Under the pieces are notes generated by a model. The model was not told where the DNA came from. It ran no database searches and worked only from the letters and a program-made list of their open reading frames with translations. This document shows positions 1 to 48,712 of a DNA stretch of 64,000 nucleotides, piece after piece. The DNA is from Flaccisagitta enflata (Eukaryota). Position 1 is the stretch's first letter. Each line of letters begins with the position of its first letter. The stretch spans positions 47,802,001 to 47,866,000 of the forward strand of contig OZ231126.1 in NCBI GenBank assembly GCA_965153355.1, in the 5' to 3' direction. The translations under genes and the position numbers were made by a program.

Positions 1-3000
1 GTATCAGTCTCAACCTCTTTAAGATTTAAGAATAAATCTAAAGGTATTTTAGGCTTTTGACCTAAAAAGACAAATTGTGGTGCATACCCAGTTGTCTGAA
101 GCACACTTATATTATAGAAGAAACAGGCCATTGCTAGGGTTACTTCATCCCATTCACTGCCATTGTCTGCGGCCATTTTGTAAATTACTCCTTTTAAGTT
201 TTTGTTGAATCTTTCACTTAAGTTGGAAGTTGGATGATAGGAAGATATGAAGTGCAGTTTAATTGAATTTATTTTGCAAAATTCTCGTAATGCTGGTGAG
301 TCTAACCCATTATCAGTAACTAAGGACTGGCAAAAGCCAAATCTTAAAATATACATTTTTTTAAAAGCTTCAACTATAGTAGCTCCTCTTAGGTCTGGGA
401 TAGCCTGAGCTAGTCCATATCTAGACCAACACTCAATGCCCGTGAGGACAAAAGAGTAGCCTTCTATTGATTCATTACTTAAACGCCCAATAGTATCAAT
501 AAATACTTTTTCATTTGGCTTGGAGGCTGTAATTTGTAAAGGAGGAACATTTCCTGTCCCACGTTGGTCAAACTGTTGACAGATTTTACATCTACTAACT
601 AGTAATTGAAGCTGATTTAGTAAATCAAATACATAATATTTTTCCATTATATTTCTTGCGGTTTTTTCTGCACTGTAGTGACCCATATTGTCATGATAAT
701 GATGATATAGGTCTGGTATCATATCTGGAGGTAATACTATTACTAGTCTATCATCGATTTTCCTCTTTAAGATCTTATCATCTATTTGAAATTTATTTTT
801 ATATTTTACATAACTTTTCAACTCAGGCTCTATTATTTGATTAAACTTCGGAAATTCTCCTTTCTTCAAATATGAAAAGAACTTTTTTATGATTTCAGAT
901 CCTTTTTGAATGGCTGGTATGTCTGTCTGGTCTGTAATTAAATTAATAGCTACCTCTGATCCCGTCGCAAATGTGCTCATCATTGGAAGCCATGAGCGAC
1001 TTGGGTCGACGTCATCTTGTCCATACTGCGCCAGTGCTTCTGACGCCGATAAATCCGGATGTGCTGCTGCTGCTGCTGCTGGTGATGGTAGTGCCGCTGC
1101 TGCGGCTGATGTCGATGCAGCAGAGTGATTTCCTCCAATCCACGGAGCAACGACTGCAGTCGCCGTTGGTGCCATCAAGGTGGCGTTTTTCATCGTCTTC
1201 ATTTTGGGAGCTCTTTTTGTCCACGTGGTCTTTTTCGCCCGCCACCACTCTTTTCTTTTTTCGTTCGCGGTCATTTTGCCTGAAATTGGAAGAATGGTGG
1301 ATAAGTCAGTATTTTCCCCCTTTTTAAGAGTAGGTTCTTCCGAAACTACATTGCACAGTGGGGAGATTTCTTCTGCTTCTGTAGGCAAAATGCGTTTTCT
1401 AATATTTTCCCATGTTTCAGCTGAATGGCGTGATAAACTGTCAACTGGTTTCATATAATTAGAGCTGCCTTTTTTATATATCACAGTAGTATTTTCTTTG
1501 TCTAAGACTGAATCTAAAAACTCAATGAGCCTATGCTGCCTTAGATACTTGCCACTAAAACCTAATTTTAAAGACGTTAATGCCTGGCAATCAATTCTAA
1601 TTATTACCTTTGTAAACCTAAGATAGTAATAAAATTTGCGAATTGCATAGTACAAACCTAATAACTCTCTCTCTGAGCTTCCTGCCTTCCGTTCTGTCTC
1701 ATTGAAAGCTCTACTTCCAAATGCAATTGGTACTTCTAGCCTTTTTATCTTTTTACTAGGTAATTCTATATCTTTTATTTGTGATAGGGAGTAGCCTACG
1801 CCCTCACCAGAAGAATCACAGGTCACTATCATTTCAGTATCATAAGTTGGGTGAGCTAATTGGGTAGCATTAACTATTTGACCTCTGACCTTATCAAAGG
1901 CCTTTGTATGTTCTTCTGTCCAGTAACTTTCAATTCTTTCGGGAAATTCTTTTTTAAGTAGATTATACAAGCATTTTACTGTTAAGCCGTATCCTTCACA
2001 AAAATTTCTATAGTAATTAGTAAACCCCAAAAATCTCATTATTTCCTTTTTTGTTTTAAGTGGCCTGTGCCAATTTTCTAGTACAGCAGTCTTAGATTTT
2101 TCTATGCTTATAAAGCTCTTGTCGGTATATAAGCCTAAAACCATAGTTCCATGTGTAAAAAGTTCTAGTTTATCTAAACGTATTTTAACATTGTATTTAA
2201 CTAGTTTTGAAAAAACTACCTTAAGTACTTTCCAATGAAAATCTGACCCGCCTTCAAAAGTGAAAACGAACCAGTCATCTACATACACGGCGACAAATTC
2301 TCTCACCTTCTTGCCATCAATGACCTCATCAATGCTTTCTACAATTTTGTTCATGCAAACCTGAAAGCTATTTGCACTACAGTACAAACCTTGCACAGTT
2401 CTCACATAAGCTAGATTACCTACATCGTTTGCCGTCGTGGTATGTAGGTACTTAATGCAATCACGATTGACTGCTACTGAGAAAAAACCTTGATTTATAT
2501 CGAATTTTGATAGGAATTCAAATCCTTGCATTTTATTTCTTAGTGTTTCTATAAATGGTAAGTTAGAAGACTGTGGTTTGCATATGGAATTAATCAATCT
2601 TGCGTCAGAAACAAGACGATATCCTTTTAAAGAAGAATAATCATTTTTACCTGGTTTCTTGACTAAAAAATTGCACATTCTGAATGCGCTTGCTTCCTCA
2701 GCCTTAACAAAAACTCCTGCACGGAGCAAATGCTCCTCCATTCTAGCTAATAGTTTTTGTTCTGGTAGGCTTTTCTTATAATTATTCTGGTAGGCACGTT
2801 TATTTTCATGAACCTCAAATTTTGTATTATGGAATTCGTACGGCACGCTGCCGATGTCGTAGTTATGACGCGAAAAACATGGCCTATATTCTTGAATTTC
2901 TTTTCTAACTCTGTTTTGTAAGTTTTTGTCACACATATTTAAATTTAGATCTTTTGAGTCGAGATTGAAAAATTCATAGTCATGGAACTCGTCTATAGGT

Positions 3001-4073
3001 CTTTCTATCTCATCTAAAATCCTGTAAATCGTTTCTGCTTCACTATCTGTTGGCCTTTCCCACACGTATTCAAACTTAGGTTCCATGCATACATCCTCAT
3101 TTTCAATGAACAATTCGGCTAAATTGAACAGTTTCTCACCTTTTCCGCGCTGTTGGGAGCCGCCTTTGAAATGCTGATTGGTCGCTGAACTTGCTTGCGT
3201 GATTGGCATCACCGCCATCGGCGATGCAGACATCGTCGTCGCGTTATTCGTCATTGGCATCGTCGTCGTCGGCATCGTCGTCATCGTCGTCCCCGTTGCG
3301 ATTGGCCTCGTCGACATTGTTGATGCTATTGCCGGCGCTACCGGCGCTACTGGCGTCATCGGCGCCACCACTGTTGTCGGCGGCGTCGCCGTTACTGTCG
3401 TTGACTTCGCTGTTGTTGCCGCTGTTTCTGCTTCTGTTTCTAATGTGTCGAGAAAGTCTTCTATTTCGCGGAAGAGAGTGCTGTCCGGCGTTGCGATTGG
3501 CGAACCCAAAAGCCTTTCTTCATCCTGTATTTGGGGTTTTGGGGGAAATGATTCTTTAATCAATTTGATATGGTCAGAAGAAGGGGATTTGTTTACAAAT
3601 TGTGTATATTTTATTTCACTTTTCCCTGATGGAGCAGAAATGGTTAATGTTTTTGACTCCATGTCGATTTTTGTTTTTAGTTTCTCCATGAGACTCAAAC
3701 CTATAATAGGATAGTCCCAAGCTAGATCTGCATTTACAACGAAAAAGTCAGTTTTTAGATCTATGTCTCCTATTCTAAGTCCAAACAAACCTATCCCCGC
3801 CCCAGGGATGCTATTTCCAGTTGCACCAACTAGATTTATCTCATTATTTAACGGTTTCAAATCAATTGCAAAATGTTTCTCTTTTTCAGAAATAAGTGAC
3901 CAATTTGAGCCAGTATCTGCTAAAGCAGTTATTATTTTATCCTTAAATCCTGTCTTTCTAAGGGTGATCTTTATAAAGATCCCCTTTTTACCCAATTTAT
4001 TAATATTATCTTGATTATTTCTGTCTTTTACTTCTGCCCAGAGTCTTTGAAGTTCTGGCCTCGATAGTTTAAA
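1..4073 (-). CDS. pol: Pol polyprotein (protease, RT, RNase H, integrase), partial, open to the window edge
   Basis: Manual translation gives ~1357 codons with no stop. PR: LADTGS (Asp 3917-3915). RT: YRLVSDARLIN, SKFDINQGFF, YVDD (2285-2274), FLGFTNYYRNF. RH: TCDSS, ERELL, VDSLSR. IN: HDNMGH..CKIC, FIDTIG, VTDNG, YHPTSNLSER. Confidence 0.96.
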
Positions 4074-5785
4074 GAATTTGGGCATCTAGCCTTGATATGA
4101 CCTAGTTTACCACATCGGTAACATTTAGTGTTTGATAAGTCCACAGCTGAAACCTTTTCTTGGGTTTTCTCTTGTTTTTGCAATTCTCTGTCCTGAATAC
4201 CAGCATTATTTCTCCTGTCTTGCCTATCTGGATTGTACATTCTAACTACAGGCAACTTTCCTTTGTAAGGAGTCAAACGTTGTTCTCTTTTTGAAACATT
4301 ATGTGGTTGTTGGTTTCTAATGTTATTCATAGTAATATCATTTCTAGGTTGAGCTTCTAAGATTAGCGAGTTGGACATCGCTTCCTCCATATTTTTTGGC
4401 ATGGAAAGCCTTAAATTAGCTTTTAAAGGATGTGCTAGTCCATCTAAAAACCTAAACAGGACTAGGTTATCAATTGTATTTGGTGGTAGGCCTACAAAGC
4501 ACTGAGTACTTAATCTTTTTAACTCTAGACCATATTCAAAAGCCTTTTCTCCACTTCGTTGCCTTCTTGCATTGAACAATTGCAAGGCTGTGGTCTGATT
4601 GGTTGAACTTACTGCTTTAATGAACAAATCAATAATCTGATTTAGGGTTAGATTTGTATTTTTTGTTTCATCTTCTGTCATAATTGAATCCAAAGTACTA
4701 TAGTAAGGCTCAATTACACTTGTACTAAGTCTGGCTAGTCCCTTTGCCTTTTTGACTTCTCCTGCGCTAAAAGCGCGTTTTACTATTTTGCCCCATGTCT
4801 CCACTGGGAGAGACGCAGAGCCAGTATACTTAGGAATCTGAATAGCACTGGGTGACTCTACTTTTACGGACACTTCATCTCCTTCTACTTCTATTTCTTG
4901 AGCTGGAGCTGCTTGTTTTGCGGAAGGTTGGGCGTTACTACTATTGCCACTACTGCTGCTACTATTGCCACTATTGTTGCTACTATTAGCAGCAGGGCTT
5001 TCTACAGTAACTGACCTTCTGCTTCTAGATTTAGGAATTTTACTCATCAGATCCTGATTTTCTAACTTTAACCTTGCTATCTCAGCTTTCATTTTTTTTA
5101 TCTCACTACCGCTATTGTTATTAGTCGCGACTCTCACCTCTTCAGTCATGCTTGATGGACTACTTGATGGACTGCTCGATGTTTCTTCCACGGCCAAGAT
5201 TTTGTCATCTGAGAATAGAACAGTTGGTTCAAAGTTAATTTCCTCTTGAATGGGGAATATTTTTTCTTCATATCTTTTATTTTTGTTTCCCACATTCACA
5301 ACCAAATCGAAGTGATCTGCTTTCATTTCTTCAAGTTTTAAGAATGTGATTAACCTATTTATATTGTACATCTCATCGTGACTTATGTCCAAATAGGAAG
5401 CTCCACTCAATATCTCAGAGAATTCACTAGCACCAAGATCTCTGAAGATTATTTTTTCTTCATGGATTCCCTTTTGCAGGTCTAAATAGCCTGGGAAACC
5501 GTCATTTGGTGATTTATACCCTTTTCTGTAGGCCTCAATTGTGTTCATGATTGGTTTGTCTTGTTTTTGAAAGATATTATCTAAGTCGGTTACCTTGGTC
5601 ATTTTTTCGTTAAAATCTAATCTAATTATTTGCATATTATGGTCATCATTGCATTTTCGATGACAACAGCTAACCATTTTGTTTTTTATGATAAAACGTA
5701 TGTCATCTTCTCCACACACTTTAAAATTGAAAGCTGTGACATGTTCTCCTTCGTTACATTTATCGAAACAGTAGCAAGTTTTCAC
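4028..5785 (-). CDS. gag: Gag-containing ORF (585 aa): non-Gag N-terminal ~200 aa, coiled coil, capsid-like core, CCHC zinc knuckle
   Basis: IPKYTG...W and RRQRSGEKAFEY..EL...FLDGL capsid-like motifs; CYRCGKLGHIKARC (4123-4082). The track start is GTG; the frame opens at 5803. Confidence 0.9.
   Translation of the reverse strand: MKTCYCFDKCNEGEHVTAFNFKVCGEDDIRFIIKNKMVSCCHRKCNDDHNMQIIRLDFNEKMTKVTDLDNIFQKQDKPIMNTIEAYRKGYKSPNDGFPGYLDLQKGIHEEKIIFRDLGASEFSEILSGASYLDISHDEMYNINRLITFLKLEEMKADHFDLVVNVGNKNKRYEEKIFPIQEEINFEPTVLFSDDKILAVEETSSSPSSSPSSMTEEVRVATNNNSGSEIKKMKAEIARLKLENQDLMSKIPKSRSRRSVTVESPAANSSNNSGNSSSSSGNSSNAQPSAKQAAPAQEIEVEGDEVSVKVESPSAIQIPKYTGSASLPVETWGKIVKRAFSAGEVKKAKGLARLSTSVIEPYYSTLDSIMTEDETKNTNLTLNQIIDLFIKAVSSTNQTTALQLFNARRQRSGEKAFEYGLELKRLSTQCFVGLPPNTIDNLVLFRFLDGLAHPLKANLRLSMPKNMEEAMSNSLILEAQPRNDITMNNIRNQQPHNVSKREQRLTPYKGKLPVVRMYNPDRQDRRNNAGIQDRELQKQEKTQEKVSAVDLSNTKCYRCGKLGHIKARCPNSLNYRGQNFKDSGQK
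4067..4073 (-). promoter_or_regulatory. -1 ribosomal frameshift heptamer U_UUA_AAC (gag to pol)
   Basis: TTTAAAC in X_XXY_YYZ phase just after the knuckle; the -1 frame reads straight into the protease. Confidence 0.85.
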
Positions 5786-8700
5786 AGTTTTGATATTGTT
5801 TTTTTATTTTATATAAAAGAATGCCATCTCCTGGTCTTATGTATTTTCTTATTTCTTTAATCACTCCGTTTTTGTCAAATGTTAGTCCTAGTTTTATGTC
5901 ATAATGAGAGTTAGAAAATGACAGATACTCATTTTGGTGTGTGTCGGCAATTTCTGCCATTTCTTTAAAACCCAGGGTAAACACATCACCATCTCCAGTA
6001 AAACTCGTCACACTTCTTTTCATCTTACTAAAAGGGTGTTTTTTAGAAACTAAAGGAAAATTCTTCAGCTCTAATATATGCCCCTTTTCAGTTGCCTTGA
6101 ACCCTAACATCATCAAATCAAAACTGTCCTCATACATAGTTGGCAATTTCTCAGCTAATTGAGGTTCCGGTTTTTCATGATAGAATGTTTCCTTCTTCCC
6201 AACGGGACTTTTGTTTTTTCTAGTTCCTTCGATCCTTTTAACACGCCCTCTCTGGTTTCTATACACAACTATGCGATTGTTGTCTCTTATATGGTCGTAA
6301 CGGTAATCACCACTTTTCTTTATACTTTTGGACGTTCTGTCCAAGTATTGTTCTATTGTCTCTTTTGAGTTCAGTGTCTCTATTTTTCCTCTTTCAATTT
6401 CATCACAAATCACACTGATAACTTCATCTTTACCATAGTCCTCCTCTCTTCCCCTCTGATCTTGATCACTGACCCTATCTTTTCCCCTCTGATCTTGATC
6501 ACTGCCCTTATCAAGATCTGCGATATGATTTATTTGACTCAAATAACTTTTATTTTCTATTGGTTTAACACAATCACAGGTTCGAGTGATACATTTTGAA
6601 ATATCAGTGTCTTGAGATTTGATTTCCTCAGGTTTCATTTTTTCAGCTCCTGTCATTGAACGGAAAAAGATTTCTTGATCTAGATCATTGGTTAAATCCG
6701 TGATTTTATGAAATTTTCCCCTAAAAAAGTCGTAATTAGGCGAGAGGTCAGGGGTCATTGACCTTGAGGGAAAGATTTTGAAATCTGCAGGTTCAAGTTT
6801 CAGTTGTTTCATTGGTTGATTAATGAAATATATATTTATATCTCCACCTTTGCTCTTTTCCACGACCAAAAACATTTCATGAACAACATTGCTTTTACCA
6901 TCTATCTGAAATTGCTCATAAAATTGATGAAACTTAACTAGTTTATCATTTACAAAAATGTGTTGTAATAGACCATTACGGAAAAATTTCATAGTGATAT
7001 CCATAGTCTTTAACCAAGTCTTATCGATTTTTATTTGGGTTTTATAGCTGTACTTATTTGTTATAATATCCTTGAAGTCATTCGTTTCATTATTTTCTTC
7101 CCATTTTTTAATCAGGTTTTCTGTCACAACTGGTCTAACTTGACCCTCTTTCTCATAAATCTCAATTTTTACCCCCTTTCCATCATTAGCAGTTTTTGCA
7201 GTGTAACGGAAAGGCTTGTAGATGTCTTCAGTAGCTCGTGTTTTGTATAAATATTCATTTTTATGATTTTTAGATGTAAAAGTGTAATCTGTTATTCCTA
7301 ACCTTTCTTGGCCCTTAATGATAAACACGTCTGAAATGCTATCCTTAACCTTTTGTTTTAAGACCTCCCAGTCGTCTTCTGGGTCCCCGCTTTGTTCTAC
7401 AAAAATATTATCTTTGGTCAAACAAATTAAGTCCTTTTGATCTAGGTTGGTTTCCATTTTAGAATTGAACTTATTGATTAATTTTAGGTCCTCATGAAAC
7501 TTATAATCAAACACGATTTGGGGTCTCATTTTAGGAAGTTTTGCGAATTTCCAATTTAATTGTCCTTTAAATGTGTCTAAAAATAGCTCCGCGCAGTCAT
7601 TTTTTCCAGAGTTCGGTTCTTTTGTTTTTTGTCTTATGATTTTTTCACAGATTGGTTTTTGTTCAAATTCCATATTTTCGTCGTCTCGATATTCGTTCAC
7701 ATCTTTTATTGCCATAACTTCTAGGTCATGGTTTAGAGATTCATTGATTTCCATTTCTTCCCTTTTTTCGTTCTCTTGTTTACCATGATTATGATTATTT
7801 GGACTGACTTCATTTTTATCATTGTTTTTATTTTCAAGCTCCTCATTATCACAATTATCATCATGATTTTTGTCGTAATCAAGTCCATCATCATGATCGG
7901 CTTCATACTCACGCTCGTCACAATGATCACCGCCGTTATCATTTACAGTGTCATTTCCACGATCTTCACTATCATCGCCAGGACTGTCATCACCTTCATT
8001 GCCACATTCATCTTGATCATCATCATAGTTATCACCATCATAGCCGTGACTGTCATCATGATCATCACCATCATCATTGTGATTATCATCATAATCATCA
8101 CCGTCATAGCTGTGACTATCATGATTATCATCACGACCACTATCATCATTTCCATCATCCTGGTCACTGTCATCATCTCCATCATTTTCACTATCATCAC
8201 TTTCACCGGAATAATCATCATCATCCCAATCATCATCCTCTGAGTAGTAAGTATCTGAGTCATAACTCTCATTGACTCCTTCTACTATGTCTTCCTCATT
8301 GATAGTGTGTAGCAATCTGTAGTCTAAACTGGATAACGGGATTTCCTCACTTCTTTCTTGTGCGTTCATGACTACGTATCTGCAATTCAAATTCCATTTA
8401 GCATGTTCTGTGAACGGGTCATCATCTGCCTTCCAACAGCTAAGACGAAGCTTGCAACCTACACACACTACTTTGTCTTCTATATAATTTAAGGAGGAAC
8501 AAAAACAGTTAGGCTCATGGTTAATTAAACTTGGTGGGTAATAGGTTTTCAAAAAACCCATGGATGCTAAAGTTACTGGGTTAGAGAGTTTTCCTGCGGG
8601 CCATTTACTCTTTTGAAAGCTCTTTATCCTTCGGGCCCTGTTGAAGAGTTCTGTTGTTTTATTCCCAAATGTCACAAACTTAGTCCTTCTTTTCTTCCCT

Positions 8701-10125
8701 TCTAAACATGCCCATATCTCAACGGGATGAGTGAAAAAACCTTGACTTACAGTCATTCCATCTTCATATCTTTTTATCGCGTCAACCCATTCTTTCCTAG
8801 GCTTTTCAGGGACATGAGTCAGAAACCTTGATACTAACTCTGCTGCTTCCCCACATGCAAGAGCCTCATCCTCTTTGTCAGGATAATTATCAATTTGATG
8901 TTCACAGAACTTCGTTCCAACATTCTCAACTTCATTCTCATAGATACATGCATTCTCACACAGCATTCCTTCCACGTGATTCGCACAGTATACGTGTTCC
9001 GCACAGTACTTTTCTGACGCAATGATGTCTGCTATCTGGTTTGTTAGTTTGTTTATCTCGTCTTCCTTCTTTACGTAAGGGAGTAAATATTTTGGGAAAT
9101 CATCTTGAAATTCACTTTTTATCTTTTGTAAATGTCTTAATACTTTTGTCATGACTGGCCTCGGGTCGGCTGGAATGGCCATGTCCTCGATAATAGGTAA
9201 TGTTAAACCTGGGATCCCGAGATGCAATCCAGATAAAAAGAAAACCCCATAGTAAGAGCCAAGTTGTTGGCGCCTGATGCGTACTATCTGAGCCGGTTCA
9301 AAGAAACCCTTAGCAGATAGGCTATCTTTTTTCAAACTTGGATTTAGGTACCAAAATTCCCCTAAGTGATCGACATAAGAACCTACGTTTAGAGTAGGCA
9401 AAAATGTTGGCTCTTGACAAACAAAACATCGACATTCCTTTGCATGTATTTTTTCCCCATAGACTACCCTTTTGTCTTCCATGCCTTTTGCTAAACCAGC
9501 CAGCTCGAGGGCTCTTGATATGTTATATTGAGTTAAGGTTTGGTTTCTTTTTTTCTCACTAATTGGGATATTTTCATAAATTTCTTCAAAATTATTGGCA
9601 GAGCCACTAGAGCGATATTCTACTCTGCCCATATTCCAATTATTCCTGTTGCTAAATTCATATAATTCCTGCAACTCTTTACTGTCTAGAAGTAAAGGCA
9701 TTACTAACCGTTTAGGTTTGATTCCATGCTGGATCCTGAAAATTTTTTCTTGCGGGATGTTAGTTGTACTTTCGTTGGTCTTAGTTTGATTTTGATTTTC
9801 ACAATTGTTTTTACTTAAATTTCGTTCGTTGCAGTTGATTTCATTTATTATTGTTTTTAATTTGGAAATAATTTTATGCGTAATTGCGATCAAGTCCTTC
9901 GTTTGTATTTCTTTAACGCCCTTAACGCATTCTGATATGAGATTCACTTCTTTAGCATCATTCGAGGTCAGGTCGTCTCCTTCAGACATCGTTAAAATCT
10001 TAATCTCTAAATTTTGTAAGTCAGTAAAGATCTCGTCTGGATTTGGGTTTTGTGATTCCCAGTGATGCGGAACATTAGAACACGAGTCCTCTGAATGCGT
10101 TGTATACGGCTGTTGTTGTTCATGC

Positions 10126-10218
<93 letters not shown>

Positions 10219-10397
10219 AACAAAACGATTAATCGATTCACATTTTGAAAATTTGGTTCATCGGCGAAAATTGTTGATATTGTTTGTATTGTTGTAGTCA
10301 CTACTTCTTGAGCGTATTGGCTGCAAGATTGCATTTGCAGCTCAGTGGCTTTTGCGTCTGCCACTCTTTGAAGAAGCTCCAGACTTTTCTCTGCCAC
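5760..10397 (-). CDS. Retroelement accessory ORF3 (1545 aa): polyQ, BIR (IAP repeat) domain, Asp-rich tract
   Basis: 4.6-kb ORF with Q31 at 10217-10125, BIR at ~8639-8373 and an acidic D/E/N tract at ~8270-7790. The track start is GTG; the first ATG is at 10334. Confidence 0.9.
8373..8639 (-). other. BIR domain (baculoviral IAP repeat) within ORF3
   Basis: RARRIKSF..KWP...LASMGF...DKVVCVGCKLRLSCWKADDDPFTEHAKWNLNCRYV has exact CX2CX16HX6C zinc ligands plus the R..SF..WP, LA.xGF and W...DDP..EH BIR signatures. Confidence 0.93.
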
Positions 10398-11803
10398 TCA
10401 CTTTTCAGTCTCATTCTTTCATTCAGACTTTCAGTCGTAATAGACGGATCATCGATCGGTGGCTGATTTTGCAGCTCTGAATTTATGTTAATGAGAGCCA
10501 AAATTGTTTCATATATTTCATTTCTATTCATACCAATGCTAGACCTCGTCTGAATGCCATTTGCGTCATTCATCTCAATTGCATCTTTTATTTGAAATGC
10601 TACATTCTCAGTTAGCGAGTTCGCAGAGAGCAAATTCTCGCCTTCTATCCTTTTTCCTTCCATGTAAAGTTCATGGAACTGATTTTTATCAAAAGTTTTA
10701 GGCTCAGGAGCCCCGTAGAGATACCAATCCCTAGCTTCTGCCCCTTTCACCTCCTCTATCGTGAACACTTTGTTTTGTTTTGTCTTAATTTCCATAGGTT
10801 TTTTCATTTTATGATACAAATGGCTCAATCTTTCTGCTATTTTGTCCTTTGAATTGTCACATACATGCCTGTTGGCCTTTGCCTTAAAGGCTGGACGAGA
10901 AATTTCAAGAATATCAAAAATGTTTTTTATTTCTTTTATTTTCTCTGTTTCTAGGAATTTTAGTATTCTAGCCTCAGATCTTTTCTGCATCTCCCTTGAT
11001 ACAATTTTAGTTGGATCGGAACACCCACAGTCGATCTCAGATACACCCTCAATAATGGTTTCCTTTTTGGTTGTTATTGCCTCCTGCAATTCGGTCACAA
11101 TTTTGTCAATCAGTTCGAGATAAATCAGATGATTAAAGCCTTGAGAGTTTTCTAATTCTTCTCCCCCCATCACAGCAGCTTCCATCATAGAGGTGAGTAA
11201 GTAAATGCGATCTCTAACAAAAAGCGGTACCTTTGGCTCGATTTTCATGCATTCATCTAACAGTTGTGTCATAGATTGGTGAAACTTTATTTCTAGTTTG
11301 CCTTCTCTATTGATCTCTATTGTCGCGTTATTGCAACGGGATTCCATGAAACATTCTTTCTTTGATACTTCAACCTTACCGTTCGAAGTGCTGTAATCCG
11401 GGTTTACAGGTCCTAACGTCGTTGATGGGGTCCTTTCATCGACGTTAGCAGGGTTTTGACCCTTCGTGGAATCGTGTCGATCCATTGGCGTCTTTTCACT
11501 TACCTGTCTTTTATGTAAAGATATGTCTGACTCTTTTCTCTCAAAGATGCCCAAGTCCATTTGTAAGACTGGTGGGAGAGTCTCAGACATTCCAGGAAAG
11601 ATTCTATGCCTGTCTATGTGATTCACTGTGGTGATCAGCCTAGCAAACCGCACAAGGCACAGAAAAAGATATAAAGATAAAAGAATCAAGAATTTAAACA
11701 AATAAAGGACTGGACTCGGATCGTAAGCGATTAAGAGAAGTCCTATCCCTCCGAGCTGAATCGATAATACAGTGAAAATTGATTCACTTGTCACGCTATT
11801 CAT
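10301..11803 (-). CDS. Retroelement accessory ORF2 (500 aa) with N-terminal hydrophobic/transmembrane segments
   Basis: Long ATG-initiated ORF inside the element. Residues ~8-55 are hydrophobic (IFTVLSIQLGGIGLLLIAY...VLYLFKFLILLSLYLFLCLV); the rest is charged and helical-looking. Confidence 0.8.
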   Translation of the reverse strand: MNSVTSESIFTVLSIQLGGIGLLLIAYDPSPVLYLFKFLILLSLYLFLCLVRFARLITTVNHIDRHRIFPGMSETLPPVLQMDLGIFERKESDISLHKRQVSEKTPMDRHDSTKGQNPANVDERTPSTTLGPVNPDYSTSNGKVEVSKKECFMESRCNNATIEINREGKLEIKFHQSMTQLLDECMKIEPKVPLFVRDRIYLLTSMMEAAVMGGEELENSQGFNHLIYLELIDKIVTELQEAITTKKETIIEGVSEIDCGCSDPTKIVSREMQKRSEARILKFLETEKIKEIKNIFDILEISRPAFKAKANRHVCDNSKDKIAERLSHLYHKMKKPMEIKTKQNKVFTIEEVKGAEARDWYLYGAPEPKTFDKNQFHELYMEGKRIEGENLLSANSLTENVAFQIKDAIEMNDANGIQTRSSIGMNRNEIYETILALININSELQNQPPIDDPSITTESLNERMRLKSEWQRKVWSFFKEWQTQKPLSCKCNLAANTLKK

Positions 11804-11945
11804 AAACGTCTCTGATGTCTACAAATGAACTGGTAGCAACATAAAGTTAAGTAAATGAATATGATTGCTAACACGAATGTTATCAAGGCTGTCTCTATTA
11901 CCGTTGATCTTTCTTTTTCCAGTCTATGAGTAACATTCAAGTTCA

Positions 11946-12212
11946 TTAATAATCCTCGTCCTCAAAAACTATTTGCCTAAACCACTTAAATATTAATCTA
12001 CCGTTTACTTCTTCCAAGCTAAGCAGCTTTTTTATTACCCTTGGTTTACTTCTTAGGACAGGTACTAAGAACGTAGACAGAAACTTACGAATTATACTAG
12101 AGATGAGTGTATTTCCAAAAGAAATAATCTCACTTTTATTTTTTCTTCTTACATGCACGTCTGTCTCAGTACAGATGACTTCTATATTACCGAGTTCAAC
12201 AACTTTACTCAT
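11946..12212 (-). CDS. Retroelement small ORF1 (88 aa), unknown function
   Basis: ATG-initiated, first ORF of 60 aa or more after the PBS, same strand as the element; no recognisable motif. Confidence 0.45.
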   Translation of the reverse strand: MSKVVELGNIEVICTETDVHVRRKNKSEIISFGNTLISSIIRKFLSTFLVPVLRSKPRVIKKLLSLEEVNGRLIFKWFRQIVFEDEDY

Positions 12213-12399
12213 CGCCTAGGAACCGGCAATAAATGTCGTCCTAAAAGGCGATAGAATCTAGGAAAAAGCACTCTTTACTTTAGCTACGACCTTAGGGTGT
12301 TTCACTCTAGATGATCAGGATAAGTCCTTTGATTAGTGTTTATTAAGATTCATCAAATTGCTATTAGGTTGTGTTAATTTATTTAAGCTATACAGTAGT

Positions 12400-12412
12400 A
12401 CCGCTGCCACCA
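12400..12412 (-). promoter_or_regulatory. Primer-binding site, tRNA-Leu type
   Basis: TGGTGGCAGCGGT is complementary to the 3' end ...ACCGCTGCCA-CCA of animal tRNA-Leu(AAG/TAG) and lies just inside the LTR end. Confidence 0.85.
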
Positions 12413-12417
12413 TAAAT

Positions 12418-13050
12418 TGTGTATATATATTAACTTGATCTTACTTAGTTTAATAGGTTCTAGTATAGCTAAAATTTAGTTCAACCTAGTTGTCATAGGG
12501 CAGCAATAATAAGATGTTTTTAAATGCTACAATATGAATTTATTGAATTAAGAAGTTAAGTATATTTAGCATATGATGAATCTTGGTTGTGGTAATAAGT
12601 AGTTTTGAGTTGCTACTAAAGACTAAGACAGAATTTAATTCTGAAGTCTGTCCTAAGGAGAATGGAAGATATAAGAAAAGACAACCTTACTATTTAGACT
12701 TTATCTAGTCTTAGCCAAGATGAATATCTGCTGGCTATAAAGACTGATGGTCTCACAACTTAGTCTATATGAAAACTCAAGACTTGTGATACACCTTAGT
12801 CTCTTTCCTCGAAAGCTCAAGATGAAATTTCTTCCGTCTAGTAGAGCTCAAATCCAGGAAGGATCTCTTCTCAGCTATTGGGGGGGTTTTTATACTACGT
12901 AGCCTTCCACGAGACCGTTGCGTGAAATTTCTCGAAGAGTCACGCAACCGATTTTGGGTTTCCCCAAAATCTAAAAATAGCAACATAGGAATGTTGGTCT
13001 AAGGAGGGTAGAGAGTGGAAGGAGAGAGGGGTTCCAGATTATTTAACACA
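12418..13050 (-). repeat. 5' LTR (~633 bp)
   Basis: Minus strand starts TGTGTTAAAT (13050) and ends ATATATACACA (12418), giving TG...CA inverted termini, with the PBS 5 nt downstream. Contains TATAAAAA (12894-12887) and AATAAA (12544-12539). The second LTR is outside the window, so boundaries are inferred. Confidence 0.8.
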
Positions 13051-13649
13051 TACCCCTCAAAAAAAATTTTGAAAATTTATAGATTCAAAATGTTTTCCAA
13101 AAAAAAATGTGCTTACAAAAATTTTTTAAAAAAATTTTTTTTTTAAAAAAATCAAGATTAAAAAAATTTGTTAAAAAAAAAAAAGCTGTATCAAAAATTT
13201 GTGATAAAATTTTTCTTGAAAAAAATTCTTAAGTCCAGGAAATAATGTTACTAGATACATCATAAATACCCTTATATTTTCTTAACCAATACTCAGAATT
13301 TACTGAAATCTTGCAGGGGAGCTTTAATTGATGCAATAAACCTAAACAACAAGTTTGAACAACATTGGTGGACCTTTACTACCCTTCCCCTATGTAAATT
13401 GCACAAGTCCAAGAATTAATATTACTACAAAAATAATAGGCAAAGGGTATCAAATATTTATGAATGTTGTTGAAAGTTGGTACACAGGTTAGTAATGCCC
13501 CAAAAACAACACTGACCAAGTTTCATCAACATCTGAGTTGTGGTTCTCAAGTTTTTAAGGGTTGACACGACGACGACGAACACACGACTCACTACACGAT
13601 CAAGGCTATGTTATAGTCCTCGACGTAAACTGATCGTCGAGGACAAAAA
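13051..13649 (-). mobile_element. Non-autonomous Helentron/HINE-like element, probably interrupted by the LTR element
   Basis: Minus-strand end TTTTT + 10-bp hairpin GTCCTCGACG/CGTCGAGGAC (13616-13644) + TATA + (GTC)n, the same layout as the other HINE-like copies here. Confidence 0.5.
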
Positions 13650-14039
13650 TCTTTAAGATGAGCGCAATTTGGTTTCTGTAGCTTTAGTCGTTTAGAAGTT
13701 ACAAATAAAAAAATAAACCTATATCCAAAATGATTGATTCTGCAAAGTTAGTTTAAAATATGTGAAACCAAATCATCTTTTACAAAATAAAAAGCTATAC
13801 AGAGAGCTTGAAATATACAAAACTCGAATCATCAGTAAGGTAAAGACATCATATTACCCCCTTGTACTTTCAGTATGAGGTTTTGGTCAATGCCTAGTGA
13901 ATTGATCAATGAATTGCCCAGGTGTCGGTATACTTTTTTCCAAGATTGTAGACGGTATCTACTGTAATTTGAGGAATATGTGACATTTCGGCTTCTTAAC
14001 GACATGATGCCTCATTCATTCCTAAATCTTTTAACACAG

Positions 14040-15246
14040 CTGTTGTTCCGTCCACCACATCTCCGGCGATAAATCGAGGCAAAACCCGCAAAAAGCAATC
14101 CCCGTCCGTCGCGCATCCCGTTGTTCTCAAAGGCTACTTGTCATCACACGGGCGCGATCAGTGGGGGAAACCGAATCGCGTCATCGGTGGCCAAACCAAA
14201 ACCATAATTATCAATCACGATCCTGATCCTGCTCTAGATTTCTACAATACAAAAACGAATCGAACTTTCTTTAAAATCCGCCCATGGGCGCCACACACGC
14301 CCGAACAACACTTTTGCGACAACGTCGAGTGCAGCCTGATCTACGTCCTGTGTGGCTTCTCAATCGTCTTTGTGTCAGCCTTTATCTACATAGCTTGCTG
14401 CGAAAGACGCAAAGTCACTCGTCAAATGCGAGCGCAGCAACGACGACAAATGTTTGATAGACGGGGATCGCAATCGATTTTTACCAGTGACAGCGGCAAC
14501 CTAACCGACATATCCAACGGAGTTGGCGACAGTGGGGAAGTCTTCCATGAACATCCGCCGCCACCGCCATCGTATTGGTCCAGTCAGGGGACAACGCGGC
14601 CCGCTCACTGCGGATATTTCAGAAATTCGTCCAGTTCAAGCACCACGGCTAGTGGTAGGTCGCTGCGATGGTGGCCCATTTCTCTCTGGGACAGTCTGCA
14701 GAATCCACTTCGAACGCTGCAACTGGACGTCCGAGAATTTGTCGACTCAAATCCGCCACAAAGGTAATGACCTATGACTATGAACAGGATCAACATACTA
14801 ACAGACAGAAGCAACTTTAGATAATGAAAAAGACAAAGAAAAAGAAATACGGAGAATGAGACAAAGGAAGAGAGACTTGCGGGGGGGGGGAGCCAAATGA
14901 ACATAAGAGAAACAAGGAAAGAAAATCAGAAAGAAAATAAGAAAACAAGGCCGGTCTAATACACGGCTACCCAAGTCGCGTGTGGGTGGGCAGGAGCGAT
15001 GTTAAAGACTAAATGAGGTCGCCCAAGGGCAATAAGTGGTCGGCGATACCCGTTGCCCTGCTTTGCATGATTGTCAATCGGAGCGAGAGGAAGCAAGACA
15101 GACGGACCACCCAACCAACCAATCGACATAGCAGACCACACAGTTGCCTGCGACATGGCGGATTATAAAGCCGCTTGCACGCGGCTCTTGAGATGAAAAA
15201 AGACCAAGAAACACAAAATCCAGTCATCCAAAGATCACACATGGTC

Positions 15247-15336
<90 letters not shown>

Positions 15337-18300
15337 AACGGAGAGAGAAATTCACTTCCATGACATACATTCCCTCGTATCACATACATTCCTCCGTATC
15401 ACTATGGCAAAATTAAGACATCTTTTTTCACATGGTCTTATTATAACGAACGACTCAAAATCATCCTTGTTTCTAGTCTCACGAGGGACTCATATCGCCT
15501 TCCTCTCGGTGTCTTAAATTGGAAGCAGATTGTGTCGCTGGCTTAGGAAAACCACATGGGAAATCAAAAGAGTTGATCCTAGTCCTCTTCGACATGGAAT
15601 TTCCGCGATAGAAAACCATCCAAAGTCATTCATTTTCTTCTCATCTCTCTCACACCACTCAGCATTTTCTAATTCTAGTCTGTCTCGAGAGAGCCCAAAA
15701 CGCATGAGACTGACATTTATTCAAGGCAACAGCGAAATCGAAAAGTTCTGTTTTCATCCTATTTTTAAGTGCGTCCTCGCACTTCTATAAGAGGTCATGT
15801 CCGTTGGTCAGTCAGTTGGTCGGTCGGTTGGTCGGTCACGCAAACGTTTGCAATGCGCAGAACGGCTGATTTTGACGTATTTCTTCATTACTACGTATCA
15901 CCTTTCATGCCTCACCACATTCATGTTTATTCATTCATTCATTCATTCATATATTCGTTCATTCATCAAAAACGTTCATTCACAAAATCTTAATCAAGCG
16001 AGGTGCACTTATTGGCCTTCACTTGGCCTTGTTTCAATATCACATGCGAATTCTCTTGACTGACTCAATAACTCAACAAAAACTCAACTACATAGCTAAA
16101 ATATCTAATGAGAACTCAACCGACCAACCAACTACTTAACCGATCAGCCATTCGACCAATTGAACAACCAACCGACCGACCGACCCAATTCCACCACAAC
16201 TAACCAGGTAATGAAAGCACCCCGAAAATGAGCAGGAATGACGAGCGAATGACATAATAACTGATTTAACTAAAGCTAGTGAAATATAATAATCACCAAT
16301 AGTAAAATCTGGCGCGATATTCCACAATATTTGCATCTTGATTCTGACAATTTCATTTTGAGTACAGGACGTGAGACCATAAGCCAGAAGAACAAAGGAA
16401 TTAAGCAAAACCTGCTTGTGTTTTCCAGGGCATAGCTTGCATTGACTACAAGGCCGTATGAGTACTATTGGAAGTTAATACAAGTCTTAGACGGACTGAC
16501 AGAAGCGGAAATGTGCGTTTTCATACTTATTCCACTTGAGCATCTTGTCACGACGTACCGACAGACCAAAGGACGGTAAAAAGCCTCATGGGGAGTCGCT
16601 GTCGAGCCACTAAAAATATCGACTACTTGGTTTCCTTTGGTGGATGAAAAGTTAATCTTAGCTATTTTCCGCTTGTCTGCTACCTTGAAGCCAAGCCTCA
16701 GGACGACCGGCGCAGTGGGGACAAAGATGGGGGTTAGTTTTCCATCAGAAATGGCAACAGTTTCTACTGTAGAAACGAGATCCGGCCATCCAACCAAGTG
16801 GAAAGTACAACAACTGTGCTGTCGATGTATTCGATTTCGGTCCAGTCATTTCACTGCAAATGTCTCCACGTTCCATGTGTCAGGACATGTGATTTCTAAG
16901 AAAGGGTTATTCTACGTATCAGGTTTACAGGCATATATTATTGACTTCTCACTGGAGACAAGTGTGTTAGGAACACTGTGTTCCAGATGGTATGCAATCT
17001 ACCTTCTATTTCTCTGCTCTCCTTGGACACGGACTTGTGACTATATAAGAGGCTTTTTATGAACTGTGAGTCCGACCGTACTATGTAACGCCAGAGTGCA
17101 AAAAGGCGCATTCCGCCTCTAGAACCCCCCCCCCCCACAGCGTCTGCGTCGATACTGTAACCGCGCGTTACTATTTAATTTTGTATCCCTTCGCATTACC
17201 TTTTGATTCCGTATTTCTGAGTTAAATTATGCCTTTTCTCAGGCAGCCAATGGCGGTCAACCTTAACGTAGCACATTCCATTCCTCAGCTCTACATCCAA
17301 ATGATAATCAAATGAATTCATGATCGGGTAGAATGACCTCGAAAGGCACCGCCTCGGCAACGCCTGCCTGCCTTTCGCTTCTGTCTGAGATTAATGGTTC
17401 TGTCGCCTCGGCGTTTCTCATTTGCGATCTATTCAATTGTACGGTTTACCGAACGCGCGCGGCAGGGCAGAACAAAAGCCATAATTCACACAAAAGAAAA
17501 GCTGCGTGAATTAAACCGAACAAAAAAAGCAAAGATCTTGTTTTGAATCGCGCACATGCAAAATACTCATCATATGGTATGTATACTATGTATATATCTA
17601 ACACACAAGTCTTTTCACATTACCAAGTCTTTTCACATTACCAAGTCTTTTCACATTACCAAGTCTTTTCACATTACCAAGTCTTTCCACATTACCAAGT
17701 CTTTTCACATTACCAAGTCTTTCCATTACCAAGTCTTTTCATTACCAAGTCTTTTCACACATTACCAAGTCTTTTCACATTACCTTTTCACATTACCATG
17801 TCTTGTTTTTCACATTACCAAGTCTTTTCACATTATTTCATTTTTCACATTACAAGTCTTTTCACATTACCAAGTCTTTTCACATTACCAAGTCTTTTCA
17901 CATTACCAAGTCTTTTCACATTACCAAGTCTTTTCACATTACCAAGTCTTTTCACATTACTAGGTCTTTTCACATTACTAGGTCTTTTCACATTATCCAG
18001 CCTTCCATCCATTGATCTGACACGCAGTCATCGCATAGATCTATTACCCACAAATCCCATTCCTGAGAGTCGTTCGGAATTTCTACCCCTGCCCAACCAC
18101 AACCCGCCCCTTTATTTACCACCAATCCACTTCTTATAACGTTATAAGTAACATCTACCAGGTTCAAAAGCAAGACGTTGCCCGTCAGAACAACATCGTT
18201 CAAGTTAATGATCATTTTTAGTTGCGGACACGCAACTCTATAAGAGGCTTTGTCGGTCTGTTGGTCCATTGGTCCGTGGTCATCGAGTTGAAAAGTGGGA

Positions 18301-24041: not shown

Positions 24042-26100
<2,059 letters not shown>

Positions 26101-27659: not shown

Positions 27660-28390
27660 AACAGGTCACTCAAGGGCAATATGTGGTCAGCGATACCTGT
27701 TGCCCTGCTTTGCATGATTATGAATTGGAGTGAGAGGAAGCAGGGCAGCGGCCCCGAAGGGGACGAAGTCCTGTAGAACAGGGGACTTTCTTTCGTTCTG
27801 GCATTACGTCCCCCCTAGACCCTCTCAGGCCTGAAATCTGCCCTCTCAGCCCCAAATCTGCCCTCTCAGGCCTTGAATCTGAAAGGGCAGATTTAGGGCC
27901 TGAGAGGGCAGATTTCAGGCCTGAGAGGACAGATTTCAGGCCTGAGAGGGCAGATTTCAGGCCTGAGAGGGCAGATTTCAGGCCTGAGAGGGCAGATTTC
28001 AGGCTTGAAAGAACAAGTTTCAGGCCTGAAAGGGCAGATTTCAAGCCTGAGAGGGCAGATTTCAGGCCTGAGAGGAAAGATTTCAGGCCTGAGAGGGCAG
28101 ATTTCAAGCCTGAGAGGGCAGATTTCAGGCCTGAAAGGACAGATTTCAAGCCTGAGAGGGCAGATTTCAGGCCTGAAAGGACAGATTTCAGGCCTGAGAA
28201 GGCAGATTTTGGGCCTGAGAAGGCAGTTTTCAGGTCTGGAAAGGCAGTTTTCAGACCTGAGAAGGCAGATTTCAGGCTTGAGAGGGCAGATTTTGGGTCT
28301 GAAAGGGACCGGGGGGGGGGACAAACACATGAACGAACAAAAGTCCCGTGTTCTACAGGGCTTTGTCCCCTTCCGGGCCACTGCCCAAAA
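27660..28390 (-). mobile_element. Non-autonomous element with long sub-terminal IRs and internal 21-bp minisatellite (GGGCAGATTTCAGGCCTGAGA)n
   Basis: IR GGGCAGCGGCCCCGAAGGGGACGAAGTCCTGTAGAACA (27743) / TGTTCTACAGGGCTTTGTCCCCTTCCGGGCCACTGCCC (28386). Confidence 0.75.
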
Positions 28391-31396: not shown

Positions 31397-35527
<4,131 letters not shown>

Positions 35528-37395: not shown

Positions 37396-38375
<980 letters not shown>

Positions 38376-45054: not shown

Positions 45055-45143
<89 letters not shown>

Positions 45144-45228
45144 TGACAGAGAGTGACAGCCACAGAGAGAGAGACAGCGACAGAGACACAGCAAAACAGA
45201 CACAAACAACACACACATGCACACACGC

Positions 45229-48200: not shown

Positions 48201-48712
48201 GAATCGCGGCCAATCGCGTGTCTACTGGACCCAGCCACCGCCTGGGACGCAGCGGCGGCGGCCGAACTGCGCATGATCGTCCAATCGTCGGTTGGGTTGG
48301 AGGCAGAACAAAGATCGTCGTCTTCCGCGCTTTGAGCACTGACGGTCGAATCCAACGGATCGGAGATCGACCATCGATTCCATTCAGCCATGCAACGAAT
48401 CACGGAGGCGGGACACGTCTGCAAATGCACGTGCATGTCGCCTCGTCGCAGTTCCCAAGCGCAGCCGTTGCAGGCATTAACGCAAGGGACGCGCTGAAAG
48501 AGGCAAACGAGACTAGCGTGGTCTCCGACTTGGCACGCGTGAGGCTCGAAGGAGCAACCGGCGTTAGGGCACCGAACTAATGGACAGCAAGCGCCACCGT
48601 CGATTTTACGATTACGCTCATGAGTTCGTCTGGAGAAGCAAGAGTTACATGGGGCGTGTAGAGCTTGTACAGCTAGTTGAGCGTGTAGAGCTTGTAGAAC
48701 GTGTTCCGCCAT
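43526..48712 (-). CDS. F-box only protein 30/40-like (TRAF-type zinc finger + F-box); exons 48712-48001, 46884-45525, 44134-43842, 43713-43526
   Basis: N-terminal CPLVRCPNAGC..H....H...C....VPCVN...GC and CPASVIRCMAEWNRW; FRRDEF..H...H.....L.GWVE.RCPLA..GCPF; F-box LPPEVLEAIFRHLDGFSL. Confidence 0.9.
44600..45270. repeat. Polypurine (GGA/GGGA) tract followed by (GA)n and (CA)n, intronic
   Basis: Directly visible low-complexity sequence. Confidence 0.9.
47036..47980. mobile_element. TA-flanked MITE (Tc1/mariner/pogo-type) in F-box gene intron 1
   Basis: TA-GGGTAGAGTGGGGTAAAATGGGTCA / TGACCCATTTTACCCCACTTCACCC-TA, with internal copies of the GGGGTAAAATGGGTC motif. Confidence 0.85.

Follow-up and report, generated by a model that had tools for sequence, protein, structure and literature searches.

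We are highly confident that a stretch of Flaccisagitta enflata DNA encodes a genuine BIR domain inside the Gag polyprotein, about 2590 aa long, of a gypsy-like retrotransposon. By the window we mean the whole stretch that was analyzed, 64,000 nt of contig OZ231126.1 (positions 47,802,001-47,866,000). Large DNA viruses are textbook examples of the capture of IAP or BIR genes, and retrotransposons are usually seen as defenseless against the DNA-damage and death pathways of their hosts. In the literature that we searched, we found no description of a BIR inside the Gag of an LTR retrotransposon, and BIR capture by a retrotransposon is apparently undescribed there.

The BIR domain and its insert

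The BIR domain lies on the minus strand at 8373..8630 and corresponds to residues 590-675 of an open reading frame of 1545 aa (ORF2), as placed by Pfam, phmmer against the PDB, AlphaFold (AF2) and Foldseek. The minus-strand translation of 8373-8639 gives the peptide RARRIKSFQKSKWPAGK ... HAKWNLNCRYV, matching its quotation in an earlier note on this DNA. That note had called the peptide an IAP-type BIR domain, and the Pfam search bears this out, with a match of ORF2 to BIR (PF00653) over profile positions 1-69 of 70 at an E-value of 1e-12 and 48.9 bits, where the gathering cut-off is 22.9 bits; as a sequence match this is far beyond chance. The zinc-ligand pattern that had been pointed out, CVGC-X16-H-X6-C, is present as C-x2-C-x16-H-x6-C in Cys645, Cys648, His665 and Cys672 of ORF2 (minus strand, 8382..8465), and these columns are near-invariant in an alignment of 38 sequences. 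Among the relatives of the element described below, the ligands are kept in P0004, and the sequence of P0003 stops short of the last Cys.

Over the 28 residues bounded by the first and last zinc Cys, the window BIR and BIR3 of cIAP1 can be aligned without a gap, and 14 of the 28 are identical. Its best phmmer matches in the PDB are BIR3 of cIAP2 and cIAP1 (E about 1e-9), while the type I BIR1 of cIAP2 is a much weaker match (3.3e-4) and survivin chains match at E-values of about 5e-6 to 5e-4. A structure prediction, which had been proposed as a check, gave a confident AF2 model (pLDDT 87.9, pTM 0.78) with the predicted arrangement of a BIR fold, that is, N-terminal helices, a three-stranded sheet and C-terminal helices. 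Foldseek with this model returned 149 PDB matches at E <= 0.001, the top one being cIAP1 BIR3 (probability 1.00, TMt 0.73). Judged by sequence and predicted fold, the nearest known type of the window BIR is type II, the BIR3 of cIAP and XIAP, in agreement with the likeness that the earlier note had drawn. That note had also seen no RING, and neither a RING nor any further Pfam family was found in ORF2 at E up to 1, except a low-complexity TFIIA match; in most of the 96 cellular BIR proteins that we scanned there is a RING-type family, usually zf-C3HC4_3.

The window BIR differs from cellular ones in a family-specific insert of about 20 residues with a conserved H-x3-C-x-C (minus strand, 8472..8546; ORF2 aa 618-642), delimited by AF2 and alignments. 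The Cys/His-containing insert had been noticed earlier between the GF and DKV motifs, where it indeed lies, and AF2 places it between strand 1 and strand 2 (model residues 44-68). Cellular BIRs align to the window BIR with a gap of ~21 residues at this point. The distance from WP to Cys is 26-27 residues in 201 of 251 measurable BIR cores, and among the BIR cores compared the H-x3-C-x-C insert is confined to the element's relatives, its His and both Cys being invariant in the window, P0003 and P0004. In the AF2 model the insert adjoins the sheet that forms the peptide groove. We consider its His and two Cys, together with a conserved Cys before the central Trp, a candidate second zinc site. 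In one HMMER alignment the insert falls opposite the 'WP...LA.AGF' segment of cIAP1, a no more than suggestive sign of an origin by partial duplication of the N-terminal half of the BIR.

The surrounding element and its relatives

The features of the element all lie on the minus strand, and by its domain order it is a Ty3/gypsy-like LTR retrotransposon, the LTR evidence being limited to a putative 5' LTR in the window. Along frames of 591 and 1361 aa, Pfam finds a gag CCHC followed by protease, reverse transcriptase, RNase H and integrase, the Ty3/gypsy-like order. The gag proper (4028..5803) consists of a capsid-like region and a CCHC zinc knuckle (4076-4126), identified by Pfam zf-CCHC and by the relatives, and pol (3..4085) encodes aspartic protease, reverse transcriptase, RNase H and integrase before it runs off the window (gag-asp_proteas 0.012, RVT_1 5.9e-19, RT_RNaseH_2 1.1e-21, Integrase_H2C2 2.5e-8, rve 6.5e-5). 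Within the gag/pol overlap there is a T_TTA_AAC (UUUAAAC) heptamer in the gag frame (4067..4073), with pol in the -1 frame. Heptamers of this type serve as -1 frameshift (slippery) sites, and pol may be expressed behind this one in that way.

The putative 5' LTR (12418..13050) begins with TG and ends with ACA, with a TATA-like box in between near 12895. In run X1, read depth is 490-498 over it, against about 206 over the internal part (~2.4-fold), and a single 540-bp contig with a depth of 498 covers exactly 12509-13048. Its borders had to be inferred because the 3' LTR falls outside the window; a target-site duplication was not seen either. The region of ~2.4-fold depth with the TATA box precedes ORF1 and does not separate ORF2 from gag. 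Five bases past the putative LTR end, a possible primer-binding site was read in the sequence (12398..12412, beginning with TGG); a tRNA scan of the window for comparison with it found no tRNA gene.

ORF1 is an open reading frame of 505 aa and, when counted from its first ATG, covers 10301..11803. It is the putative N-terminal part of the giant Gag-like polyprotein, with one hydrophobic segment at aa 7-27 and a second at aa 29-60. ORF2 (5760..10397), delimited by the list of open reading frames, Pfam and alignments to relatives, contains a polyQ run, a conserved Cys-rich domain, the BIR, an acidic tract and a conserved C-terminal region. The Cys-rich domain (8673..9434; aa 322-575) is directly upstream of the BIR and aligns with P0003, P0004 and P0005. 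It had no Pfam family and no usable match in the ESM Atlas, and a fold model of 367 aa covering it and the BIR, from an alignment of three sequences, was unusable at a pLDDT of 40.6. Pfam searches with ORF1, this upstream domain and the C-terminal 856 aa of ORF2 gave no significant match. The acidic low-complexity tract, rich in D, H and N, follows the BIR (7848..8300; about aa 700-850) and is missing from P0004.

The four abutting frames overlap by 97, 44 and 58 bases and are open across 11.8 kb. In the window copy as assembled, ORF1, ORF2 and gag are out of register. Contigs of three DNA runs from two studies have a one-base length difference from the window inside each of the first two overlaps, which by codon arithmetic brings ORF1, ORF2 and gag into register, and translated from these sequences the three would be a single polyprotein of about 2590 aa. 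Read depth is equal over ORF1, ORF2, gag and pol, and internal depth about 1-2 times that of the flank marks the element as low-copy. Where the run contigs differ from the window, 16 of 30 listed changes are synonymous, against about 20% expected if all changes are equally likely; the count covers 30 of the more than 400 differences listed, and a transition bias would raise the expected share. We found no RNA support in the one polyA RNA run, of which about 6% was read and in which 303 reads gave partial fits only, with no joint or splice. The loose ends of these reads pile up at a simple repeat near 3255-3290, and the result speaks neither for nor against expression. No RNA data set was among those listed as containing this sequence.

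Across 1.84 billion representatives and 5.8 billion clusters, the searches turned up only four distinct relatives (P0003, P0004, P0005 and P0154); P0153 shares the cluster of P0003 and is nearly identical to it. Three of the four, metagenomic sequences at 27-35% identity, show the same fusions, collinear in single open reading frames. In P0004 a single frame takes in the upstream domain and the BIR as well as the ORF2 C-terminus and gag-CCHC, and gag is 42% identical to the C-terminus of P0004 (E 7e-65). P0154 joins the ORF2 C-terminus to gag (gag identity 35% over 97% of the length of P0154), and P0005 joins ORF1 to the N-terminal part of ORF2, with ORF1 homologous to its aa 213-465 (E 2e-35). 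The window BIR and that of P0003 align without any gap over 97 aa (39%, 93 bits), and the alignment with that of P0004 needs 1 gap (35%, 79 bits), while the best cellular BIR reaches 64 bits and needs 21 gap positions. The zinc ligands, the R..F..WP..G.K.NP..LA..GF motif and the His and two Cys of the insert are invariant in sequences that are 29-39% identical overall. The insert of ~20 residues with H-x3-C-x-C that P0003 and P0004 have in common points to one old BIR capture that was retained: the domain would have been taken once from a host IAP, in the ancestor of a small element family, and would have gained its insert and stayed while the remainder diverged to about 30-39% identity.

A homology search of a protein collection with ORF2 aa 300-720 found no match among entries of near length, nor did a search of the same collection, again at near lengths, with the alignment of upstream domain and BIR, which missed even P0003, a member of the collection. 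In JGI metagenome contigs this alignment gave 108 pattern matches, 0 of them confirmed, and a gag alignment gave 23 loci, in none of which (0/23) did tblastn find a match to BIR, ORF1 or ORF2; these loci had generic gag knuckles only, plus pol in 3.

In the window the BIR ORF does not share the frame of gag, and one LTR is visible, which would also fit a BIR outside the element, belonging to an IAP-like exon of the host or to a chimeric assembly beside a gypsy insertion. This is largely refuted, and we regard it as extremely improbable, given that the independent contigs span both junctions with the frames in register, the three relatives hold the same collinear order at 27-35% identity, depth is even over the four reading frames, and none of the 96 cellular BIR proteins scanned has the element's architecture. 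That the BIR is retrotransposon-encoded, as had been claimed, is supported, and it lies within the Gag polyprotein rather than in a neighboring gene.

The peptide groove and what it may bind

The groove positions of cIAP1 BIR3 we take to be L307, C309, W310, D314, E319 and W323, and in the phmmer alignment the window has the identical residue at all six. The earlier note had described the groove as intact, which stands for the window copy and is true in part for the two relatives that have a BIR. The groove Leu and the two acidic positions are retained in all three family BIRs (window, P0003 and P0004), but the position of W310 is W in the window and P0003 and F in P0004, and that of W323 is W in the window, Gln in P0003 and Phe in P0004. 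By these residues, the groove is mostly kept in the window copy and partly kept in its relatives. BIR grooves require a free N-terminus. Among the close fold and sequence matches is PDB 7trl, 'human BIRC2 BIR3 domain in complex with histone H3', and going by this title a BIR3-type groove also binds the N-terminus of histone H3, which would allow a different, equally mechanistic reading.

In the explanation that we prefer, the polyprotein would run from a hydrophobic N-terminus through ORF1, the Cys-rich domain, the BIR and the acidic tract to a capsid-like Gag with a CCHC knuckle, and pol would follow in the -1 frame behind UUUAAAC. The groove of the BIR would still bind free N-terminal 'Ala-x-x-x' peptides, and a BIR carried by Gag without a RING would most likely act as a sink for death activators bearing an IAP-binding motif (IBM) or for caspases, so that apoptosis would be blunted in cells expressing the element. 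An anti-apoptotic function of the Gag-borne BIR is plausible, though we would put it slightly below an even chance; for the structural statement, the groove-binding step and this function taken jointly, we consider the balance to be even. That the domain would protect germ or stem cells from dying, as had been proposed earlier, is no more than conjecture.

That the BIR was kept inside Gag across elements just ~30-39% identical suggests that the element gains from it, possibly by blocking the death of the host cell during jumping or by reading the free N-terminus of a protein, histone H3 for instance. It seems to us somewhat unlikely that there is a lineage of LTR retrotransposons with a working IBM-binding Gag BIR that holds off host apoptosis or docks on H3 tails. 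If true, a retrotransposon would here be seen for the first time to encode a module of apoptosis control. Either function would extend the host-derived accessory domains of LTR elements by a new kind and would also provide a simple, testable system of one domain of roughly 115 residues and a few peptides.

The survivin BIR reads the H3 N-terminus; among other retroelements there are tethers derived from Gag and, in chromoviruses, an integrase chromodomain. A serious rival to the anti-apoptotic function, which we nonetheless hold to be unlikely, is that the Gag BIR recognizes histone H3 by its free N-terminus (A-R-T-K) and holds the particle or pre-integration complex on chromosomes, for example at mitosis, for access to the nucleus or for steering integration. 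The binding of H3 by a BIR3-type groove in 7trl is in its favor, as are a single BIR without RING, as in survivin, which matches at E about 5e-6, a location in Gag rather than in a free accessory gene, which fits a structural or tethering role, and the retention in 3/3 family BIRs of the acidic anchors for a free amino terminus. However, the survivin match is ~3-4 orders of E-value worse than that of cIAP BIR3, and the groove aromatics vary among the relatives, which weighs equally on the anti-apoptotic reading.

The same variation, a groove only partly conserved in the relatives, is what one might expect of a captured BIR that is merely carried along, or that serves as a structural zinc module of Gag without ligand binding. 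The 20-residue insert near the groove-forming sheet, the low copy number and the shifted frames of the window copy as assembled also fit this, but it is quite improbable in our view, given the invariance of the zinc ligands, the N-terminal motif and the insert's His and Cys at 29-39% overall identity, reading frames that have stayed open over the length of the element and an excess of synonymous changes among the listed differences. The element also encodes a protease, and the BIR sits within the polyprotein to be cleaved, so its groove, with its need for a free N-terminus, might bind a neo-N-terminus cut by that protease in Gag/Pol and control assembly or maturation. No specific internal motif points to such a site; this idea is conjecture, and we think it very improbable.

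Comparison with other BIR proteins

The BIR3 domains of cIAP1/cIAP2 (BIRC2/3) and XIAP and the BIR of ML-IAP have the same fold as the element's BIR, the same C-x2-C-x16-H-x6-C and the same R..F..WP..LA..GF. In contrast to cellular type II BIRs, the element's BIR has the H-x3-C-x-C insert of ~20 residues, and, compared with cellular IAPs, the element has one BIR, without RING, CARD or UBA, which lies about 1060 residues into a retrotransposon Gag polyprotein. Survivin (BIRC5) is similar in having one BIR, no RING and an acidic 'DDDP..EH' core, but it is a weaker sequence match than cIAP BIR3, its type of C-terminal coiled-coil helix is absent from the element, and its context is different.

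Host-derived accessory domains are known in LTR retrotransposons, such as the integrase chromodomain of chromoviruses and the extra ORFs of giant Ty3/gypsy elements. In those elements, as here, a host protein-interaction domain was added to the polyprotein; here the domain is a BIR and is placed in Gag. Viral IAPs are known in baculovirus (Op-IAP/Cp-IAP) and in entomopox-, irido- and asfarviruses. According to the available portions of two papers, IAP-like genes also occur inside WSSV-like repeats of shrimp genomes (PMC3124438, PMC2838849). Both are cases of a selfish or parasitic element with a host-derived BIR, as here, but viral IAPs are free-standing genes of DNA viruses, usually with 2-3 BIRs and often a RING, whereas here one BIR is fused into Gag.

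In bivalves, gene models of IAPs contain LTR and non-LTR retroelement domains, and the hard clam has had a burst of intronless single-BIR IAPs; as far as the available portions of these papers go, the pattern is interpreted as retroposition of host IAP genes (PMC8917759, PMC7831173). These portions report the BIR and retroelement domains in one predicted gene and the single-BIR copies as intronless and dispersed, and they do not describe the BIR as a Gag domain, unlike in the present element. If the Gag-borne BIR of this element is a working module, some of the 'retroposed, intronless single-BIR IAP genes' of invertebrates may be genes of retrotransposons rather than of their hosts. Counts of the IAP family in invertebrates call for caution, as BIR-bearing ORFs of transposons could pass as host genes.

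The BIR domain and its insert

The peptide quoted in the earlier note as an IAP-type BIR domain is the exact translation of window positions 8373-8639 on the minus strand, and it lies in a frame of 1545 aa from stop to stop (ORF2, 10397..5760, minus strand). Pfam's BIR family (PF00653) matches this frame at aa 590-675, corresponding to window 8373-8630, with an E-value of 1e-12 and 48.9 bits (curated cut-off 22.9), covering profile positions 1-69 of 70, and the zinc ligands C-x2-C-x16-H-x6-C are found. Pfam detected neither a RING nor any other family in the 1545-aa ORF. Among all PDB chains, the top sequence matches are cIAP2 BIR3 (2uvl, E 1.1e-9) and cIAP1 BIR3 (6w74 and others, E 2e-9), followed by NAIP, ML-IAP, XIAP BIR3 (~3e-6), survivin (~5e-6) and DIAP1, while the type I BIR1 of cIAP2 reaches just E 3.3e-4. 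Between the first and last zinc cysteines, 14 of 28 residues are identical to cIAP1 BIR3, without gaps.

An AlphaFold2 model of window 8328-8675, built from an alignment of 38 sequences, has a mean pLDDT of 87.9 and a pTM of 0.78. Foldseek found 149 PDB matches to this model at E ≤0.001, the best being cIAP1 BIR3 (probability 1.00, TM 0.73 on the target, 31% identity). The predicted structure shows a BIR3-like fold and zinc site, and with cIAP BIR3 leading by both sequence and fold, the identification of a BIR domain is confirmed.

In the model, strand 1 (residues 41-43, FLK) and strand 2 (residues 69-71, VVC) are separated by 25 residues with pLDDT 73-81. We surveyed this spacer in 371 BIR cores from the matching proteins; the upstream WP/WS motif could be located in 251. 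The motif is 26-27 residues from the first zinc Cys in 201 of the 251; the same spacing is 46 residues in the window BIR and 45 in P0004, one of the metagenomic protein relatives of the element. Long spacers also occur in a few cellular BIR matches among the surveyed cores, and H-x3-C-x-C is absent from every one of these. BLASTP alignments of the window BIR to P0004 (35% over 104 aa, 1 gap, 79 bits) and to P0003, a second metagenomic relative (39% over 97 aa, 0 gaps, 93 bits), run uninterrupted through the insert, and the best cellular BIR (64 bits) requires 21 gap positions. The insert's His and its two Cys do not vary among these three sequences, and neither do the zinc ligands or the R..F..WP.G.K.NP..LA..GF motif. 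One HMMER alignment matched the insert to the N-terminal half of cIAP1 BIR3, so the insert may have arisen by partial internal duplication, a suggestion that we hold loosely.

The element and its Gag

We compared window 1-14500 with contigs from two DNA sequencing runs of the source organism (X1 and X2) and from a marine metagenome of another study (X3). Four minus-strand frames adjoin one another in the window: ORF1 (11818..10301, 505 aa), ORF2, gag (5803..4028, 591 aa, with a zf-CCHC knuckle) and pol (4085..3, more than 1361 aa, continuing beyond the window). Pol contains the Pfam families protease, RVT_1 (5.9e-19), RNase H (1.1e-21), Integrase_H2C2 (2.5e-8) and rve. It is in the -1 frame, and the gag/pol overlap holds, in the gag frame, T_TTA_AAC, a classical slippery heptamer. 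Upstream of ORF1 come a leader and then a stretch at ~12418-13050 with a TATA-like box, where X1 depth is 490-498 compared with ~206 over the internal part of the element; one X1 contig of depth 498 covers exactly 12509-13048. We read this stretch as a putative 5' LTR, next to which, at 12412, is a site starting with TGG. No target-site duplication is visible within the window, and the 3' LTR falls outside it.

The contigs of all three runs differ from the window by one base in length within each of the two overlaps 10301-10397 and 5760-5803. By codon arithmetic, each difference shifts reading from the upstream to the downstream frame ahead of the upstream stop, so that ORF1, ORF2 and gag form a single frame of ~2590 codons in the run contigs, with an ATG at 11803, a stop at 4028 and the BIR at about residues 1059-1144. 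The out-of-register frames of the window reflect either a mistake in assembly or a genuine variant.

When ORF2 aa 230-720 was searched with HMMER against 1.84 billion representatives, 489 matches reached E ≤0.001, and among the 150 matches listed, three reach beyond the BIR. P0003 (342 aa, E 1.2e-52) has the upstream domain and the BIR. P0004 (1385 aa, E 1.5e-38) has both, matching ORF2 322-676 with its aa 3-352 (E 4e-44), followed in the same single ORF by the ORF2 C-terminal region (E 6e-16) and gag with its CCHC (42% identity, E 7e-65). In P0005 (1067 aa), an ORF1 homologue (E 2e-35) is fused to the N-terminal part of ORF2. P0154 (1331 aa), a further relative, matches 97% of the gag frame with 35% identity (E 3.5e-86) and reaches on upstream to the C-terminal region of ORF2 (E 2e-12); it begins downstream of the expected BIR position and is uninformative on the BIR. 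All four come from metagenome assemblies. The relatives independently point to the same giant Gag. We scanned 96 of 147 cellular BIR proteins (P0006-P0101) and found no retroelement family in any of them at E ≤1e-5; they are multi-BIR proteins of the ordinary sort, some with RING, CARD or UBA domains and some without. The claim that the BIR is retrotransposon-encoded is confirmed, and more precisely the BIR is one domain of a giant Gag.

There is good evidence for the anatomy of this BIR-bearing Gag, and full-text literature searches found no description of a Gag from an LTR retrotransposon with a BIR in it. That selfish elements capture BIRs is already known. In the nearest papers, LTR or non-LTR domains in oyster IAP gene models are interpreted as signs of retroposition (PMC8917759), the hard clam has a burst of 42 intronless single-BIR IAPs (PMC7831173), and shrimps carry IAP-like genes inside WSSV-like repeats derived from a DNA virus (PMC3124438, PMC2838849).

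Several other features of the element were observed. The leader has an 89-codon open frame (11946-12215, minus strand) that lacks a Pfam match and may be an upstream ORF. Two hydrophobic segments, at aa 7-27 and 29-60 (window 11624-11785, minus strand), open the giant polyprotein and are common to ORF1 and P0005; such a membrane-hairpin-like N-terminus is unusual for a Gag. A run of 32 Gln is found near the ORF2 start (10125-10220, minus strand), and directly after the BIR is an acidic Asp/His/Asn-rich tract of ~150 residues (7848-8300, minus strand) that is missing from P0004.

Peptide groove and possible roles

The window BIR is identical to cIAP1 at the positions matching the groove residues L307, C309, W310, D314, E319 and W323. 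Among the family BIRs, the Leu and the two acidic residues are conserved in 3/3, the central Trp is W/W/F and the last Trp is W/Q/F, so the intact groove claimed earlier holds for the window copy and only partly for the family. We infer that the BIR would bind a free Ala-type N-terminus and, lacking a RING, would act as a sink for death activators or caspases bearing an IAP-binding motif while the element is expressed. This anti-apoptotic sink, the earlier note's reading, is our best guess, and a tentative one.

Alternatively, the BIR could tether the element to chromatin via the histone H3 N-terminus. Survivin, a single RING-less BIR, reads H3, and a position inside Gag would fit a particle-bound tether; a crystal structure of cIAP1 BIR3 with H3 also exists (7trl). 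The tether is a strong rival, with a probability of its own that we put as rather low. That the BIR is a relic is unlikely, and self-recognition of N-termini made by the protease is very unlikely. We give almost no credence to the BIR not being part of the element.

Copies, variants and the rest of the window

Depth in the internal part compared with the flank (14037-14500) is 180-250 versus 128 in X1, 74-250 versus 226 in X2 and 8-11 versus 5 in X3, which indicates one or few near-identical copies of the element. The X3 contigs show that wild marine samples contain the element or something very closely related to it; one of them, over 8118-8993, for example, differs at 6 of 876 letters. Within the BIR, the sole listed difference between window and contigs (8415) is synonymous. 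In a small, selected list of 30 coding differences, 16 are synonymous, compared with the ~20% expected were every change to have the same probability; this points modestly to purifying selection on the element. The X2 and X3 contigs have a 12-base in-frame extra segment at 7796, a length variant inside ORF2 absent from the window and X1. Only X2 has 4-base GATC or TCGA duplications (770, 5436, 6228 and 7438), which look like a library artefact, e.g. ligation junctions, rather than biology.

Directly outside the putative LTR, the summed depth over 13069-14036 is enormous in every DNA run (818,278 and 173,255 in X1, against ~200 for the element). Many short rearranged contigs lie there, and the stretch is a dispersed or satellite repeat of very high copy number. 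An open frame at 41916-42908 (minus strand) matches lipid-droplet-associated hydrolase (PF10230, E 5.4e-28) and is probably a host-gene exon. Another at 47975-48742 (minus strand) contains a TRAF-like zinc finger (PF15965, E 8.5e-21) and is a fragment of a host signalling gene, whose pathway family is one with which cellular IAPs cooperate. Nested long inverted repeats, whose arms measure 428, 406 and 157 nt (91-94%), and two smaller hairpin-like repeats 86-88% related to each other (51908-54045; 34243-34830; 56960-57526), resemble elements of the foldback or MITE type. Several long micro- and minisatellite arrays, whose periods are 8, 18, 21 and 24 nt (27795-28382, 33413-33844, 24923-25238, 37916-38322, 44790-45200 and 17551-18044), produce spurious long ORFs on both strands.
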